The notes under the pieces: model-generated | Database searches by the model: none | What the model was told of the DNA's origin: nothing | Seen by the model: the letters and a program-made list of their open reading frames with translations, nothing else | Assembly: GCA_964461825.1 (NCBI GenBank) | Contig: CAYWVJ010000001.1 | Coordinates: forward strand, 15,917-58,733 | Length of the DNA stretch: 42,817 bases | Source: an uncultured Gammaproteobacteria bacterium | GTDB taxonomy: Bacteria > Patescibacteriota > Microgenomatia > UBA10105 > UBA927 | Reading direction: 5' to 3' | Translations under genes and position numbers: made by a program | Part shown: positions 27,890 to 34,773 of the stretch, piece by piece | Numbering within the stretch: the first letter of the stretch is position 1 | Layout: each line of letters opens with the position of its first letter

Positions 27890-28144
27890 TCATGAATATT
27901 TCGGAATGACAATAGTCTTCTTGCCGTTTACCGGAACGTCAAGAAGATATCCCAACGCATTGGCAACCGCCGCCCCGACGCGAAGGCCGGTAAACGAACC
28001 CGGGCCGCTATTTACCTCGATTTCCGTGACATCGGATATTCCGAGCTCCTCGATAAGCGGCAGCAGCGACTCACCTGTTTTGCCAACCGCTCCTTTGGTC
28101 ACTGAAGCCCAGCGGATGCGCGACGTGTCGATTGCGAGTTTCAT
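27890..28144 (-). CDS. tsaB: Truncated TsaB/YeaZ-like protein (84 aa, N-terminal subdomain only)
   Basis: 'MKLAIDTS' and 'SGPGSFTGLRVGAAVANALG' are TsaB hallmarks. The ORF ends about 130 aa earlier than canonical TsaB. It is ATGA-coupled to tsaC. Confidence 0.6.
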   Translation of the reverse strand: MKLAIDTSRIRWASVTKGAVGKTGESLLPLIEELGISDVTEIEVNSGPGSFTGLRVGAAVANALGYLLDVPVNGKKTIVIPKYS

Positions 28145-28704
28145 AAATCAACCGCCCCCTGACGGATAATTATATACGGATTCACGGAACAGTCGACAAC
28201 AGTGGATGCGCGTTTTATTGTGCACTCGCCGGGTACGACATAATCAACGAGTTTCGTGAGGCTTGGGTTTAAGTCATCAGTCGAGTAGGGCGTCGGCTCC
28301 CCGTGAAAATTCGCCGACGGACCCAACACCGGAACGCCGGCTCCGCGGATAATCCCCAGGATCGTTTCGTGGTTTGGCATGCGAAGACCGACATTTGGGC
28401 CGCCGGCTCGGATGGGGGAGTAGACAAGATTTTTTTTGCACGCTGCAACAATCGTCAGCGCCCCGGGCCAATACGTTTTCATGAAACGTCGTACAATATC
28501 AGAAGGGGAATCAAAATACTGCAGTGCCATCGCTTCGGAACCGACCAATACCGGCATTGCCTGCGTCGCCGGTCGTTTCCGTATGGTAAATAACCGGTCA
28601 ACGGCAGCCCGGTCGTCAATCCTGCACCCTATACCGAATGCCGTATCGGTGGGATAAATGATAATTCCCCCTTTTTTGACAATTTCTAATGCTTTCGTAT
28701 CCAT
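28141..28704 (-). CDS. tsaC: L-threonylcarbamoyladenylate synthase (YrdC-type, no Sua5 domain)
   Basis: 'IIIYPTDTAFGIGC', 'RKRPATQAMPVLV' and 'LRMPNH'. Confidence 0.85.
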   Translation of the reverse strand: MDTKALEIVKKGGIIIYPTDTAFGIGCRIDDRAAVDRLFTIRKRPATQAMPVLVGSEAMALQYFDSPSDIVRRFMKTYWPGALTIVAACKKNLVYSPIRAGGPNVGLRMPNHETILGIIRGAGVPVLGPSANFHGEPTPYSTDDLNPSLTKLVDYVVPGECTIKRASTVVDCSVNPYIIIRQGAVDL

Positions 28705-29096
28705 AACTCATGTCTCCCGTCATCAAGCACCCGAAACGTTATGTCCGTCCGCTGCGGCGGAAGGAAACTTCCCAGCTTTTCCGCCCATTCGACGACGACG
28801 TACGCGCCGGGGTCCGCAAAAATTTCCGAAAGTCCCAGTTCGTCCAGATCTTCCTCCTTTTGCACGCGGTACAAATCCATGTGATAAAAAAATTTCGCAT
28901 CACCCGTACGATAACGTCGCACAATAATAAAGGTCGGGGAGAGGAGTCGGTCGCCGATCCCCAGTCCCCGCGCAAATCCCTGCGTAAATGTCGTTTTTCC
29001 GCTTCCCAAATCGCCGTACAGACAGATAATGCGTTCCCCGTCTTTTGCAAACTGCTCCCCTACCAGTGCTGTCTGAGTCGCGTCTTTCGTTATCAC
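28686..29096 (-). CDS. tsaE: tRNA t6A ATPase TsaE (YjeE)
   Basis: 'LYGDLGSGKTTFTQG' P-loop, 'SPTF' and 'HMDLYR'. It starts at GTG 29096; no in-frame ATG lies nearby. Confidence 0.85.
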   Translation of the reverse strand: MITKDATQTALVGEQFAKDGERIICLYGDLGSGKTTFTQGFARGLGIGDRLLSPTFIIVRRYRTGDAKFFYHMDLYRVQKEEDLDELGLSEIFADPGAYVVVEWAEKLGSFLPPQRTDITFRVLDDGRHELWIRKH

Positions 29097-29103
29097 GCAT
29101 CAA

Positions 29104-29952
29104 TTATACATGAGGTTTGGTAAAAACAAAGACGAACGAGAGGATTCCTGCGCCAACTCCGACCAACCCCAGTGCCGCTCCGGCGACGCGGAAATCTGCC
29201 GGCGCGGTGGCAGCGGGAGGCGGCAGGGGCTCGTTTGTTTCACCCAACACAGCGCCTTCCGTTGACGCCGTCGGGTTGACGTACGGCGTCGGCGTGGGCA
29301 TACCGGTGGCGGTCGGCGTGGGCGTATGACGGGGAGCGGGCGTTGCGGTCGGCGTGGGCCGGGGAATCGGCGTCGGCGTCGGGCTGTCGGTCGGGGTCGG
29401 CGTTGGCGCCTCTGATTCCTGAAACGCTATATCGTCGAAATACGCTGACGCAGGCACGCCTGCGGTCTTGCTCGTAAGCACCGCGCGGATTTTTGCGGAT
29501 TTCGCACTTGCCGGAGCCTGAACGATCTGATCAAACTGCGCCCACTGGCCGTCTGCATTGGCGGCTTTATTCGTGTCGTTGGGCTGGGACAACTGTGTTC
29601 CGCTGGCGTCCGCCGAACTGTACCACGCAACGCGCAAAAAATACGCATCAGCATTGACGTCATCTGACGTACCGAATCCTGAAATTTCATAAAACATGCC
29701 GCCCTCAAGGTTTGCAATTGCCTGCTGAAATCCGTACGAACTCGCGCTGTCGTTGGTTACCCTGAGTGCATACGCGCCGCTATGCACGGGTTGCGCAGAG
29801 ATCGTCGCAACCGATCCTCCGCCTGACGTTTTCCACGGATCGACAGCGCCGGATTCAAAATCCGCATTCAACAGCAAATTGGCCGCATATACCGGAGGAT
29901 GAAAGATTAAAATTAACGCAATAAGACCAACCAACCGATACCACTGTACCAT
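29104..29952 (-). CDS. Secreted CBM4/9-like carbohydrate-binding protein with a Pro/Thr linker and a C-terminal TM anchor
   Basis: The ATG at 29952 opens the signal peptide '[23 protein letters not shown]'. '[11 protein letters not shown]...WKTSGG' resembles a CBM_4_9-type jelly-roll. The C-terminus is hydrophobic: '[21 protein letters not shown]'. Confidence 0.6.
29281..29409 (-). repeat. Low-complexity (Pro-Thr)n coding repeat
   Basis: Encodes '[42 protein letters not shown]'. The plus strand shows reiterated ggcgtcggcgt/ggtcggcgtggg units. Confidence 0.85.
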
Positions 29953-29960
29953 ATATATAT

Positions 29961-31127
29961 CTACTGCACGTGGAGATAAAAACTTACGATGCCGTCGCCC
30001 TGATCGATGTATTTGAGTTTGATGACGCTGCTTGTACCGCACGACTGCGTTGATGAATAGAGCGTTCCGTCGGCCGCCGCCCTGATGACGATGCTTGAGG
30101 AGGACACCATGTCGAAACCCGTATGAATGCCGCCTGCATAGGTATACCGCCACGACCAGGGCGTTACGCCGTATCGCTGCGTGATGGTTATCGGATCCGA
30201 CAAGGGCCAGTCCCAGCTCCCGCTGCCGACCGTCCACGACCCGCCGTTCTGGTCGTCCCGCACGGTCTTATTCGAAAGATAGCCCGCCGGATCAACCCAT
30301 GTTCCGTTTTTGCGCACCTCAAAATGCAGATGTGCGCCGGTTGAACAGGCCGGATATCCGCTGTTACCCACGAGCGCGATGGGGTCCCCGCGTTTTACGG
30401 GTCCTACCTTTGTGGCGCTTACAAGCGCTATATCAATCGCCTGTTTCTCCGCCAGCGCCTGCGCCAGAAGCCTCTGGTAAATCGTTTCCTGCCCCTGCGT
30501 CTGCGTTAGAAGCTCGTCCTTTGCTTTCTTTTGACTCGTAAGGTCCGCCTTCTGTGCAACCAGATCATTCTGCAGCTCTTTCAGCTGATTTTTCTTGTCC
30601 TCGCGGGTTTTTTTACTCTCGTTATAACTGTTTTGAGTTGTTTTCACCTGAAAAACCAGCGCGGCGTCCTCCTGCTGTACTGCCTGCACGTATTTCATCC
30701 GCGTGAGAAAATCAAAAAAATTCCGGCTCAGTAACAGCGTGCCGAATTGCGGAACCGATGCGCGTTTATACGCGGCAGGAATGCGTTTTGCTAAAAGATC
30801 CAGGCGGACAGTTAAAATACCCTCGAGCCGCGCGACTTCGGTTTCGAGTTTGTTGATTTCATTAAGCAGCGTGTTAATTTTTATCTGCGCAGCGTCGATC
30901 CGCAGGGTCGTCAGTTTAATCTGATTATCCATGTAGCTTATCTCGCCGGAGAGCGATTTTTCCTTACTTTTGCACGCGGTTACTAAATTCGTGTAGCAAT
31001 CGGCGCGTCTTTGTGCGTCAGAAAGCGATGAACAGGGGTCACCTTCACACGCGGACTGGGCAAGGATCCTCACCGGAAGTAGGAAAGTAACGAGGGAAAA
31101 AATGAGTATCCATTGAATCCTCTTCAT
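29961..31127 (-). CDS. Secreted coiled-coil plus M23/LytM metallopeptidase (PcsB/EnvC-like, FtsEX-associated), with the catalytic domain apparently circularly permuted
   Basis: The ATG at 31127 opens the signal peptide '[25 protein letters not shown]'. Residues about 60-235 are coiled coil. '[18 protein letters not shown]' (HxH) lies at aa 254-271 and 'GGIHTGFD' (HxxxD) at aa 332-339. It sits immediately downstream of ftsX. Confidence 0.8.
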
Positions 31128-31132
31128 GCATG

Positions 31133-32035
31133 CTATATCCTGAGAAATCGTGCGACCGCGATCATGCTGCCGACTGCGCCCAAGAAAAAACCGATAACGA
31201 GCATCCCCGCCAGAAATCCGAACGTCGCCAAAAGAAACGGCGTACTCCCGACCGTCGTCAATACAAGCGACACGGCCGGAATCATCCCTAAAAATCCCAG
31301 AATTATCGGCCGCACCCACACAATGAGCGCGATGATGATGATCCATGATACGCCCGCGCCTATCGTGCCGTACAAACCCCCCTCCAGAAGAAAAGGCATG
31401 CGGATGTACCACGGGGATGCGCCGACAAGCGTAAGAATTTCTATTTCCTCCCTGCGCAGCGCTATCTTCATGCCGATCACGGTCATGATGATAAGCAGTG
31501 AATCAATGCCCAGCAGTATCGCGAGCGTGCCGCCGACGAGCCGGATGGCGTTCGTCCAGCTTAATAGCGCCTCAACGATGTCTCTTTGGAATACGACCTC
31601 CTCGACTCCTTGGGCCTGTTTTATCGTCGGTTCGAGATCCTTCAGGAATTTCGGATCAACCGCCGACACCTCAAGAGAAGCGGGCAGTATGTCAGCCGTC
31701 ACCATCTCCAAAAGAAGCGGGTCGTTCTTATTCTGTTCTCGGTAAATTGCAAGCGCGTCTTCTTTTGATACGTATTTGGTTGAAGCAACTTTTCCCGTCT
31801 CCGTCAGCGTTTTGGCGAGCGAATCCGAATCCTGCTTCGTTGCTTTATCGGCAAAAAACACCGTTATCTGCGGCTTGCTTTCGAAATACGAAAGCACAAA
31901 AACTGAAGCCAAACTTGCGATAAAAAATACGCCGCCGACCAAAAACGTCAGAAACATCGTAAGAATCGCAGCCGTTGCCTGATACGGACTGCGTCGGGCA
32001 TGACGCCAAATTTTCGACAGCACCCCGGAACTCAT
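31133..32035 (-). CDS. ftsX: Cell-division ABC transporter permease FtsX
   Basis: 300 aa with the topology TM, large extracytoplasmic loop, then 3 TM. It is ATGA-coupled to ftsE. Confidence 0.85.
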   Translation of the reverse strand: MSSGVLSKIWRHARRSPYQATAAILTMFLTFLVGGVFFIASLASVFVLSYFESKPQITVFFADKATKQDSDSLAKTLTETGKVASTKYVSKEDALAIYREQNKNDPLLLEMVTADILPASLEVSAVDPKFLKDLEPTIKQAQGVEEVVFQRDIVEALLSWTNAIRLVGGTLAILLGIDSLLIIMTVIGMKIALRREEIEILTLVGASPWYIRMPFLLEGGLYGTIGAGVSWIIIIALIVWVRPIILGFLGMIPAVSLVLTTVGSTPFLLATFGFLAGMLVIGFFLGAVGSMIAVARFLRI

Positions 32036-32718
32036 TTTTTCCCCTTTCTGTACCGTCCCTTTGCTTCATCGCTCACGACTTTTCCCTCGTGCAGCGTAAT
32101 CGTCCGGCGCTTAAGATCGTTGACGATGTTCGCGTTGTGCGTCGCCATGATGATTGTCGTGCCGATTTTATTAATTTCCGTCAAAATATCGAGTATCTCG
32201 TACGACGTATCAGGATCGAGATTACCGGTGGGTTCGTCCGCCAAAAGTATTGACGGACCGCCGACGAGCGCGCGCGCTATACCTGTCCGCTGCATTTCCC
32301 CTGCCGAAAGTTCTCGCGGGAAAAAATCTTTTTTATGCCCCAGACCGACCAGCTCCAAAACATCGTTAACTCTGGTGGCAATTTCGCGGTCGTTTTTTCC
32401 TAAAATCTCCAGCCCCAACGCCGCATTTTCATATACCGTCCGGTCCGTAAGCAGTTTAAAATCCTGAAATACCGTGCCGACTTTCCGCCGCAGGAGATGC
32501 ACGTCCCGCGCGGGAATAGTTTCCAGCTGCAATGAATCAACGTGAATTGACCCGGACGTCGGAACAAGATCGCGTATGAGAAGCCGCAGCAGCGTGGTTT
32601 TGCCTGCACCGGACTGTCCGATGAGAAACACAAACTCCCCGTCGGGAATCTCAAGGGTAACATCGGAAACCGCCGGGTGTCCCGAAAACTTTTTGGTGAC
32701 GTTTGTAAAACGAATCAT
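32032..32718 (-). CDS. ftsE: Cell-division ABC transporter ATPase FtsE
   Basis: 'GQSGAGKTT' Walker A, 'LSAGEMQR' signature and 'ILLADEPTGNLD' Walker B. The start is at ATG 32718 (MIRFTNV). Confidence 0.92.
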   Translation of the reverse strand: MIRFTNVTKKFSGHPAVSDVTLEIPDGEFVFLIGQSGAGKTTLLRLLIRDLVPTSGSIHVDSLQLETIPARDVHLLRRKVGTVFQDFKLLTDRTVYENAALGLEILGKNDREIATRVNDVLELVGLGHKKDFFPRELSAGEMQRTGIARALVGGPSILLADEPTGNLDPDTSYEILDILTEINKIGTTIIMATHNANIVNDLKRRTITLHEGKVVSDEAKGRYRKGKK

Positions 32719-32723
32719 GACAG

Positions 32724-33194
32724 CTACTGGAGTTCGACACGGCCGACATCCATGAGCCATGCTGCTTTTTTGGCAGCCATCGTCTGCCCGTAGACTTTTA
32801 CTTTCTTACCGACGTATTGGTCAAGGTCGACGACCGACGAAATGAGCGTCACGGTTTGTGAAGGTCCTCCGTCCCGGATTAATGAGTGCGTTCCTTCTCC
32901 GTCTGTGCCGCCTTTTTGAATAACGCCCACGGCGGAATCTTTAAACGTTGCGGTATCCGTGCTGCCGGCGGCTTTTCCGCTGTTAACCGCTGCCGGTGCG
33001 GCACCGCTTCTGGTCGTGCGCGCCGAGCCCGACAACAGGTACCCCGTTCCGATACCCAAAAGAATAAGAACAACGTATACACCGATGATCGTTCGCGATG
33101 TCAGCAATTTCATAAATGACCCGTTATCGTCTTCAGGCTCGATCGGGCGGATCGGCTCGGGGACAACGGTCTTTTGTTTCTCGACCGGCGCCAT
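32724..33194 (-). CDS. Single-TM anchored protein, unknown function
   Basis: 156 aa with one TM ('IIGVYVVLILLGIGTGYLL') and a soluble C-terminal domain. Confidence 0.45.
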   Translation of the reverse strand: MAPVEKQKTVVPEPIRPIEPEDDNGSFMKLLTSRTIIGVYVVLILLGIGTGYLLSGSARTTRSGAAPAAVNSGKAAGSTDTATFKDSAVGVIQKGGTDGEGTHSLIRDGGPSQTVTLISSVVDLDQYVGKKVKVYGQTMAAKKAAWLMDVGRVELQ

Positions 33195-33211: not shown

Positions 33212-34222
33212 TTATGCAATTTTTTTCAAGTAAGCGATGATAAAGTCCTCGATGTCGCCGTTTAACACGCGTTCAGTGTTACTCGTTTCGTGCTGCGTCC
33301 GCACGTCTTTGACCATGTGATACGGGTGCAAAACGTATGAACGGATCTGGTTCCCCCAGCCCGGCGTTTTATACACGCCGCGCACCGATTTTTCCTCCCG
33401 CAGACGCTTTTCTTCTTCCAGCTCCCACAGCTTTGCCCGCAGGATTTTGAGCGCATATTCGCGGTTTTGCCCCTGATAGCGCTGCGCCTGGCTGGTTATG
33501 ACGATGCCCGTCGGTTTATGTTTGAGGCGGACAGCAGTGGAAACCTTGTTTACGTTCTGCCCGCCTTTGCCGCCGCTGCGGAAAAAATCCCACTCGACGT
33601 CGCTTTCTTTGATCGCAACGTCCGCAGTTTCATCCAGAACCGGCAGCACCTCGACCATCGCAAACGACGTCTGCCGAAGCTTGTCCGCGTTAAACGGCGA
33701 CTGCCGTACGAGCCGGTGTACGCCTGCTTCCGCTTTGAGAAATCCGTACGCGTAGCGTCCGGTTACGGAAAGTGTCACGCTTTTGATGCCGGCTTCGTCA
33801 CCGGGCGTATAATCGATTTCTTCCGCCGTCCAGCCTTTGCGTTCGATGTAGCGCGTGTACATCCTTAGCAGCATGCTCACCCAGTCCATCGCTTCCGTCC
33901 CCCCCTGTCCGGCGTGAACGGAAAATATCGCATCGCCGCGGTCGTACGGCCCGGAAAGATACAGCGCAAATTCCATGCGGTTCAGTTCCTGTTCCAGTTC
34001 TTTTTCTTTCCCTTCTTCTATATAGAGCGAGAGCATCTCACCTTCCTCAACTTCCTTCGTAAGCGACGCAAGTTCTTTCATTTTCTGCGTTGCCGTCTCT
34101 CTCTCATTCCAGAAATCCGGGTGCGATGAAGCCGCCTCGATCTCCCGCATCTGCCGCTTTTTACCGTCAATGTCCAGTTTCGTCAGAAGCTCTTTTGCGC
34201 GCTTGACCAGCGTTTCATCCAT
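33212..34222 (-). CDS. prfB: Peptide chain release factor 2, contiguous with no programmed frameshift
   Basis: 'SPF' tripeptide ('RQSPFNA') and '[16 protein letters not shown]' (GGQ). The ATG at 34222 has GGAGG 8 nt upstream. The track start at 34237 is GTG. Confidence 0.92.
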
Positions 34223-34224
34223 AC

Positions 34225-34773
34225 CTATATCCTCCACGCGCGGGACGCGAGTGCTATCGAAAACATGCCGGTCGCGTTGAGCGCAAACGACACGAGTGCA
34301 AACCGCAGCGAACTCATGCCGGCGATATCCATGAGACTCACTCCCAGTTCGTCCGGAAGCGGCGACATAATGATGAGCGCGCCGATGACCGGCAGCGTCC
34401 AGCGGAAATATCTGGTGTGCAGCAAACGGGTCAGGTGGTTCCCGCCGAATTTTTTATAGAGCGGGACGATCTCATCGGCAAGATCATCCCTGATGACGTG
34501 AAAAATCGTTAGATCCGCAGCCACCCCGCCGAGCCCTGCGGCAACGGCTATCTGCCACGGCGGCACGTCCCTGGCAAGTACAACCAGAATAACGGCGCCG
34601 ACCGAGACGGTAAACGAACTCGAAAACAGGAGTCCGGCGGCAAACACGCCGACCAGCCCGAAATCTTTAAGGCCGACGAGCATCTGTTGAAACGCAGGCA
34701 AACGGACTACCAGTGCGGTACCAACGACGCTCAACGCCAGAAGCAGGAGATTTTTATGTTTGTGCCGGATCAT
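34225..34773 (-). CDS. Multi-TM membrane protein (weak DedA/VTT-like features)
   Basis: 182 aa with 4-5 TM segments and a 'SPLPDELG' loop. Confidence 0.45.

Follow-up and report, generated by a model that had tools for sequence, protein, structure and literature searches.

A predicted FtsEX partner of Patescibacteria with an M23 peptidase domain whose catalytic halves are swapped

Findings

The window analysed here, the whole of a 42,817-nucleotide (nt) stretch of contig CAYWVJ010000001.1 (assembly GCA_964461825.1), encodes directly downstream of ftsX, on the same strand and with ftsE in front of ftsX, a protein of 388 amino acids (aa) that joins a predicted coiled coil to a predicted zinc peptidase domain of the M23 (LytM) family (Table 1). 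An earlier reading of this DNA by a model that saw only the sequence, henceforth the original prediction, had proposed that the two halves of the catalytic domain stand in inverted order and that the protein is linked to FtsEX. On re-reading the sequence we found all the coordinates and strings that it quoted for window positions 29961-31127 to be correct, with residues 241-284 falling on nt 30276-30407, residues 308-388 on nt 29964-30206 and the connector on residues 285-307. Only 5 nt separate the stop codon of ftsX from the ATG of the gene, and 8 nt its own stop codon from the ATG of the next gene; hence the flanks leave no room for a hidden extra half-domain.

Table 1. Features of the window, with the domain layout of the permuted M23 protein and the neighbouring genes
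Feature	Window position	Strand	Basis or remark
Permuted-M23 coiled-coil gene, 388 aa	29961..31127	-	Open reading frame (ORF) 31127->29964, stop codon TAG at 29961-29963
Signal peptide or membrane anchor, residues 1-23	31059..31127	-	Sequence; hydrophobic helix 2-16 in models
Coiled-coil region, residues 35-237	30417..31025	-	AlphaFold2; structural matches to EnvC and PcsB; weak EnvC and CC_PcsB profile matches
Conserved last coiled-coil helix, residues 214-237	30417..30488	-	Alignment A1; AlphaFold2 secondary structure
M23 half that is normally C-terminal, residues 238-284	30276..30416	-	PF01551 model positions 61-96
Connector from old C-terminus to old N-terminus, residues 285-307	30207..30275	-	AlphaFold2 beta-hairpin
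M23 half that is normally N-terminal, residues 308-388	29964..30206	-	PF01551 model positions 2-52
ftsX, FtsX extracellular domain and permease domain	31133..32035	-	Domain search, synteny
ftsE, ABC ATPase	32032..32760	-	Domain search, synteny
Conserved 156-aa gene between prfB and ftsE	32724..33194	-	No Pfam match; synteny
prfB	33212-34237	-	Upstream of the 156-aa gene
CBM_4_9 surface protein, 282 aa, Pro/Thr-rich linker, C-terminal hydrophobic anchor	29104-29952	-	Gene directly downstream
tsaE, Sua5/YrdC-family gene (tsaC-like), 84-aa ORF	27890-29096	-	Downstream of the operon
Envelope glycosylation / polysaccharide gene cluster	33-24871	-	One strand

AlphaFold2 places coiled-coil helices at residues 59-123, 137-210 and 214-237, followed by a beta domain, and the gap between the helix 214-237 and the first catalytic beta-strand amounts to about 1-2 residues. 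This last helix holds many invariant positions in an alignment of 28 close homologues (A1), and its E227 is at least 90% conserved in an alignment of 58 diverse sequences with a mean column identity of 32% (A2). The catalytic domain acquires its new N-terminus at a GD-box-like motif (the stretch 241-284 opens with VGPVKRGD): residues 238-284 carry this V..GD strand, a G.SG..STG loop, H266-L-H268 and a 'DP..YL' motif, and residues 308-388 carry WP..itQ.fG, H335-xxx-D339 and the Y-L-H386 strand, the chain ending in FYLHVQ only 2 residues beyond H386. Right after the signal peptide lies a segment with four cysteines (C27, C32, C44 and C52; residues 27-52, window 30972-31049, minus strand), which is confined to the window protein and its closest aligned homologues (P0002, P0004, P0007-P0009) and missing from the rest of the family.

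The swapped order of the M23 halves

In canonical M23 domains the N-terminal half, which holds the HxxxD motif, precedes the C-terminal half, which holds the HxH motif. A scan of the whole protein with the Pfam profile of the family (PF01551, Peptidase_M23; curated cut-off 28.7 bits) gave 50.3 bits (E = 2.7e-13), summed over two stretches with swapped model coordinates: the better one aligns residues 242-280 with model positions 61-96 (37.6 bits when the first part of the protein is scanned alone), and the C-terminal fragment, likewise scanned alone, aligns its residues 40-93 (about 334-387 of the protein) with positions 2-52 (19.5 bits). When the halves were artificially joined in canonical order, the construct gave a single contiguous match to positions 2-96 with 63.5 bits (E = 2.1e-17); it is only after such re-ordering that the window protein displays the canonical colinear order of the family. 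PDB chains with M23 domains match both halves. In the sequence alignment with the solved M23 structure 9gy1_A, query residues 332-387 correspond to chain positions 39-91 and residues 244-285 to positions 102-141, so that this alignment too is swapped, and a colinear alignment of the permuted domain with any PDB sequence was not found.

All the motifs of the family are present, namely HxxxD (H335, D339), HxH (H266, H268) and the extra catalytic histidine (H386). NCBIfam holds no dedicated model for the window protein, its best match there being EnvC, over the coiled coil only. Judged by motifs and profile score the protein is a member of the M23 family, yet one without the colinear order, and the pattern of two partial matches that merge into one when the halves are re-joined confirms, at the level of sequence, the swap of the catalytic halves that had been proposed. 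One detail of the proposal needs correction: the C-terminal half does adjoin the coiled coil, but it is the V..GD strand (residues 239-244) that is fused to it and not, as had been stated, the HLHFE strand, which follows about 25 residues later.

Homologues and conservation

The best 120 homologues are 53-77% identical to the window protein at a query coverage of 88-100% and measure 363-446 aa in length, all but one of them 363-392 aa. Every member of A1 ends in ...LHVQ, and the order persists among the members of A2, whose whole-protein identity falls to about 26%. Searching exhaustively with HMMER for the isolated domain returned 7423 matches. Among the 150 best cluster representatives (50% identity) 97 are permuted, with HxH lying 47-89 residues before HxxxD and the end about 50 residues after HxxxD, while 21 are canonical and 13-14 are tandem proteins with multiple M23 domains. 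The protein P0123 (2579 aa, 47 matched stretches) was rejected as a family member, its spurious match being due to the repeat 'DPFVLQARYGVTP'.

Among the fetched proteins, those of 300-520 aa included 199 permuted sequences with a long linker and 56 with a short one, which amounts to at least 255 permuted homologues; the permutation is thus shared by a clade. The short-linker subfamily (about 45 clusters) has 47-52 residues from HxH to HxxxD, almost no connector and a C-terminus of the form ...LYGHMID; the few of its lineages that carry taxon names belong to the Patescibacteria, apart from one metagenome-assembled genome (MAG) labelled 'Verrucomicrobiae' and one labelled 'bacterium'. Across nearly all permuted members the last catalytic histidine stands 2-4 residues from the C-terminal end. 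Nine positions (S262, H266, H268, Q317, G320, H335, D339, G354 and H386) show 100% conservation both in A2 and across 77 diverse permuted members, and the five catalytic residues among them (H266, H268, H335, D339 and H386) are also invariant in A1; the zinc ligands are thus kept throughout, as had been claimed for the window protein.

The permuted module has also spread into other protein architectures. Two giant proteins carry it at the C-terminus, P0190 (2174 aa, L085 5001-11525) and P0161 (1256 aa); the former is unlinked to ftsEX and has a Big_5 protein and dnaN as neighbours.

Gene neighbourhoods

We surveyed one genome per GTDB species with A1 as the query, which biases the survey to the Microgenomates-type subfamily, and recovered 80 loci. 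In 66 of the 76 loci with enough upstream DNA, ftsE and ftsX lie directly upstream as they do in the window, most of these loci also having prfB and the 156-aa gene, and the proposed linkage to FtsEX therefore stands. In the distant subfamilies ftsX likewise precedes the gene, as does ftsE wherever the contig reaches. Two of the loci without ftsEX, L052 (3938-5131) and L064 (3905-5017), hold the permuted gene beside genes for a MiaB-like radical-SAM protein and an amine oxidase, with a Mur ligase gene downstream in L064; such copies may have been relocated or may be paralogues.

The survey records that are named to lineage are all Patescibacteria (Gottesman-, Woese-, Roizman- and Amesbacteria, Microgenomates and Paceibacterota). 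Many GTDB representative MAGs (L001-L079), with contigs of up to about 0.95 Mb, are titled 'uncultured Gammaproteobacteria bacterium' and carry prfB, ftsE, ftsX, the permuted M23 gene and tsaE. These titles look like placeholder mislabels, and the window genome is of the Microgenomates / Gottesmanbacteria type within the Patescibacteria.

Predicted fold and contact between the halves

Given close homologues only, AlphaFold2 returned models with a mediocre predicted local distance difference test (pLDDT) score of 75. With the diverse alignment the mean pLDDT was 86.6 and the predicted template modelling score 0.68 (the means of the five models spanning 81-87), and the blocks of the domain (residues 241-388) scored 89-98, except for 78 at residues 321-330. 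Every canonical M23 strand is predicted (239-244, 249-253, 267-273, 276-278, 313-317, 337-342, 347-349, 354-363, 367-375 and 380-385), and the connector contributes an extra hairpin (strands 287-291 and 297-300) that is specific to the long-linker subfamily and lacking in the short-linker one. The domain is thus modelled with confidence and with all expected strands in place.

A pair of cysteines provides a further indication that the halves meet. C261 belongs to the STG loop that precedes HxH, C363 to the hairpin of the N-terminal half after HxxxD; within the long-linker subfamily both are present in 189 sequences, both absent in 10 and one alone present in 0, although these counts span related sequences and the independent events are fewer than they suggest. 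In one sub-clade both cysteines are displaced jointly (SC-NSSG together with GGGC-RLRYV). This covariation suggests that the halves are in contact, perhaps through a disulfide.

Origin of the permutation

The strongest evidence for a permutation comes from two loci that hold a permuted and a canonical protein in matching syntenic slots. L087, on a 929-kb contig, encodes the permuted P0306, and L089, from Candidatus Nealsonbacteria (GCA_002771215.1), the canonical P0324; both have the gene order PolX, ftsE, ftsX, coiled-coil M23 protein, small ORF and an ORF of 238-260 aa, with identities of 63% for FtsE, 51% for FtsX and 58% for PolX. P0324 gives one contiguous PF01551 match (positions 2-96) over residues 294-389 and ends in ...NPLNYLP, whereas P0306 gives two PF01551 stretches, with model positions 2-52 at the C-terminus. 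The coiled coil and the N-terminal half are colinear between the two, but the 38-residue C-terminal half, 63% identical, is found at residues 259-296 in P0306 versus 356-393 in P0324. The canonical protein has about 15-20 residues separating its coiled coil from the 'LSWP' strand; in the permuted proteins, by contrast, entry into the domain is at V..GD.

The junction of P0306 (NPRDYLGGVLSWP; ...VNPRDYLGG-VLSWP...) reads like the C-terminus of P0324 (...VNPLNYLP) fused to the N-terminus of its own domain (...VGLSWP...). Since P0306 displays the expected fusion of C-terminus and N-terminus, the most likely origin, judging from these sequences, would be that the M23 module of a canonical coiled-coil FtsEX partner was duplicated in tandem and the outer halves were then lost. 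Tandem proteins with two or three canonical M23 domains do exist (P0192, P0199, P0200, P0202, P0203, P0206, P0208, P0209, P0220, P0235, P0239, P0247 and P0259), and they match the permuted query contiguously across the domain junction; in P0192 the distance from HxH to HxxxD is 67 residues, inside the range of the permuted family. These M23-M23 proteins are possible models of the duplication intermediate. By the similarity of FtsX and the coiled coil, the closest relative of the permuted P0306 is the canonical P0324; the window protein falls with P0177 and P0277, and P0281 groups with P0271.

Relationship to known FtsEX partners

The best structural matches recovered by Foldseek with the full-length models are EnvC in the FtsEX-EnvC complex (8tzl_E, 6tpi_A), followed by PcsB (4cgk) and the coiled coils of RipA and RipC. 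EnvC is the coiled-coil LytM protein that partners FtsEX in Proteobacteria (PDB 6tpi, 8tzl and 8hd0). The EnvC equivalog model (NF008644) scores only 43 bits against a cut-off of 270, over residues 49-212, that is the coiled coil alone, and the CC_PcsB profile (PF24568) scores 21.6 against 27 bits on the window protein; many of the homologues carry a precomputed match to PF24568.

Of the LytM proteins linked to FtsEX the best studied is EnvC, an activator whose LytM domain has lost its metal ligands. It shares with the window protein an export signal, a long antiparallel coiled coil, a C-terminal domain of the LytM/M23 fold and the link to FtsEX (here through the operon), but in EnvC the LytM domain is canonical in order and devoid of catalytic activity, whereas the window protein is permuted with invariant ligands. 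LytM, lysostaphin, ShyA, MepM and Csd3 resemble it in having HxxxD, HxH, the third catalytic histidine and a PF01551 score above the cut-off, but differ in their canonical half order and the lack of an FtsEX-type coiled coil. PcsB (CHAP), CwlO and RipC (NlpC/P60) of Gram-positive bacteria also combine a coiled coil with an active C-terminal hydrolase under the control of FtsEX, but their catalytic fold is that of a cysteine peptidase and not of the zinc-dependent M23 type.

In Saccharibacteria (L091 4070-5170) and Berkelbacteria (L092 3939-5114) the gene that follows ftsX encodes a PcsB-like CHAP protein of 366-391 aa. Depending on the patescibacterial lineage, the position that follows ftsX is filled by a CHAP, a canonical M23 or a permuted M23 protein, and the presence of CHAP proteins in these two lineages implies that the catalytic module of the FtsEX partner was exchanged repeatedly within the phylum.

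Predicted function and alternative explanations

We consider it probable (roughly 0.8) that the window protein is the extracytoplasmic partner of FtsEX, a single-chain permuted M23 zinc peptidase that is catalytically competent and was born by tandem duplication. By homology to LytM and lysostaphin, whose residue roles are established, H335, D339 and H268 would be the zinc ligands and H266 and H386 the catalytic histidines. Because all five of these residues are invariant, we predict that the protein acts as an active peptidoglycan endopeptidase and not as a degenerate EnvC-like activator of amidases.

Such a protein would be exported from, or anchored in the membrane of, the Patescibacteria cell. 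Its EnvC/PcsB-like coiled coil would bind the extracellular domain of FtsX, and ATP hydrolysis by FtsE would switch the hydrolase on, to go by the FtsEX-EnvC, PcsB and RipC systems. Both halves of the one chain would fold jointly to give a single M23 domain, with the last coiled-coil helix leading into it by the loop that adjoins the H386 strand and not at the distal N-terminus. Given that entry is at the GD-box-like strand with almost no linker and exit 2 residues past H386, the mounting of the domain on the coiled coil would have to differ. When FtsEX hydrolyses ATP, the resulting motion of the coiled coil might then reach the active-site region more directly; alternatively, it might displace the helix 214-237, perhaps an autoinhibitory one, from the substrate groove. 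A new mode of coupling between FtsEX and the active site is speculation.

Several observations weigh against the reading of the protein as a permuted, FtsEX-linked peptidase. The half that is normally N-terminal remains, by itself, under the Pfam cut-off (19.5 versus 28.7 bits), the permuted gene lies away from ftsEX in 10 of the 76 loci, and the cysteine counts are subject to the relatedness noted above. When the full-length models were compared with PDB and BFVD by Foldseek, only coiled-coil proteins were matched and an isolated M23 domain was absent from the top 50 matches, as is to be expected when a sequential aligner meets a permuted domain. Finally, a neighbour-joining tree of the re-ordered domains (197 sequences, 127 columns) places the permuted sequences in three pure groups with canonical ones between them, but its backbone branches of 0.005-0.02 do not separate one permutation event from several, and the pairwise score matrices of the domain are no clearer than the tree.

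EnvC being the best whole-protein match in both structure and profile, and the best-studied FtsEX-linked LytM protein being an activator, one might suppose that the window protein is likewise a non-catalytic regulator that activates a separate amidase or hydrolase. We consider this unlikely: EnvC-type domains lack metal ligands, whereas here all five catalytic residues are invariant in at least 77 diverse members; the score against the EnvC equivalog falls far below its cut-off (43 versus 270 bits); and the catalytic PcsB-like CHAP proteins that other Patescibacteria hold in this slot suggest that it encodes the hydrolase proper. We view as still less probable an arrangement in which the halves complement each other between chains, in a domain-swapped dimer or oligomer, with an active site arising only when partners meet on FtsEX. 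The PcsB crystal 4cgk, one of the top structural matches, is a domain-swapped dimer, few residues separate the halves in the short-linker subfamily, and the cysteine covariation is blind to the difference between contacts within and between chains. Nevertheless, AlphaFold2 builds a confident domain from a single chain, the length of the junction follows naturally from the fusion of C-terminus and N-terminus and is compatible with adjacent canonical termini, and the giant proteins, which have one permuted module at the C-terminus, suggest that this module folds autonomously.

That a canonical gene was scrambled at about nt 30200-30280 in one assembly, or misread through a frameshift or a gene-calling error, is scarcely conceivable. 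The order is common to hundreds of proteins whose assemblies (NCBI, JGI, ENA and Logan) are independent and to the 80 genome loci, and the gaps of 5 and 8 nt leave no DNA for a second half. The same order, junctions and C-terminus in independent assemblies exclude chance and misassembly. The existence of tandem M23-M23 proteins might bring to mind a decaying remnant of such a duplication, consisting of two non-functional fragments; the strong purifying selection with invariant catalytic residues, the C-terminus kept at 2-4 residues past the catalytic histidine in nearly all members, the conserved operon position and the confident predicted fold leave next to no likelihood for this explanation.

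A further proposal accepts the permuted peptidase and adds to it an adaptive, non-neutral rewiring of force transmission by FtsEX. With the cut in the loop beside the H386 strand, the last coiled-coil helix would be joined to the active-site sheet, so that its ATP-driven motion would gate catalysis directly and replace the steric 'restraining arm' by which EnvC is autoinhibited, the same breakpoint having been hit or reverted more than once in Patescibacteria. Close relatives by FtsX and coiled coil that differ in order, namely the permuted P0306 and the canonical P0324, lend this some support, and we regard it as a tentative and rather improbable extension.

Precedent and significance

To our knowledge every described M23 member is colinear, and we know of no permuted NlpC/P60 family that serves as an FtsEX partner. 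The original prediction had been aware of no permuted M23 domain, and our full-text literature search, which covered part of the journals and domain-classification databases, likewise returned no description of a permuted M23/LytM domain, nor one of the FtsEX partner of Patescibacteria. Circular permutation does occur naturally in the NlpC/P60 superfamily (YaeF/poxvirus G6R, LRAT), which includes cell-wall hydrolases (PMC6403190) but whose fold and chemistry are unrelated to those of M23. A study of HABAS and the barrel-sandwich hybrid lists M23 among the proteins with a GD-box-like four-stranded element and reports topologies related by circular permutation across the barrel-sandwich-hybrid superfold (PMC11515920); it compares separate protein families and reports no permuted M23 peptidase domain.

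The two orders constitute a natural experiment, in that orthologous FtsEX partners that share their coiled coil and catalytic chemistry have the catalytic domain tethered at two different points in related genomes. How ATP hydrolysis by FtsEX leads to the activation of hydrolases is an active question. The permuted proteins also imply that the M23 fold tolerates a cut in the loop after the Y-x-H strand together with a fusion of the native termini, which could be useful for the design of split or permuted lysostaphin-type enzymes. For annotation, the consequence is that profile searches catch half a domain or a faint match; because profiles see only this half, what are probably division hydrolases in a vast uncultured phylum risk being called as truncated or going unrecognised. 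More broadly, FtsEX partners in Patescibacteria appear to evolve in a modular fashion, the catalytic module differing by lineage.

Other features of the window

The 156-aa gene upstream of ftsE is conserved at the same position in 64 of the 80 loci, its ORF overlapping that of ftsE, and the equivalent position in two distant loci, L081 and L082, is taken by an ORF without a Pfam match (164 or 156 aa). It may be a member of the operon, encoding an uncharacterised accessory of FtsEX in Patescibacteria.

Downstream of the permuted gene, the CBM_4_9 surface protein of the window has a counterpart in an LTD-domain protein, which is found directly downstream in L081 and L082 and further downstream in L087 and L089; a surface protein may be a regular neighbour of the operon. 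The tsaE gene is found downstream in 48 of the 80 loci. The adjoining 84-aa ORF is unusually short, with only its residues 33-74 matching the TsaD family, and is probably tsaB.

Nearly all long ORFs of the window (positions 1-42817; GC content 52%) are on the minus strand, and its 42.8 kb contain no tRNA genes and no Rfam matches. The glycosylation cluster comprises two YfhO-like proteins, six GT2 and one GT1 glycosyltransferases, a Polysacc_synt flippase, a PMT_2 protein, RmlB/RmlD-like enzymes, a UDP-glucose dehydrogenase and several large ORFs without a Pfam match.

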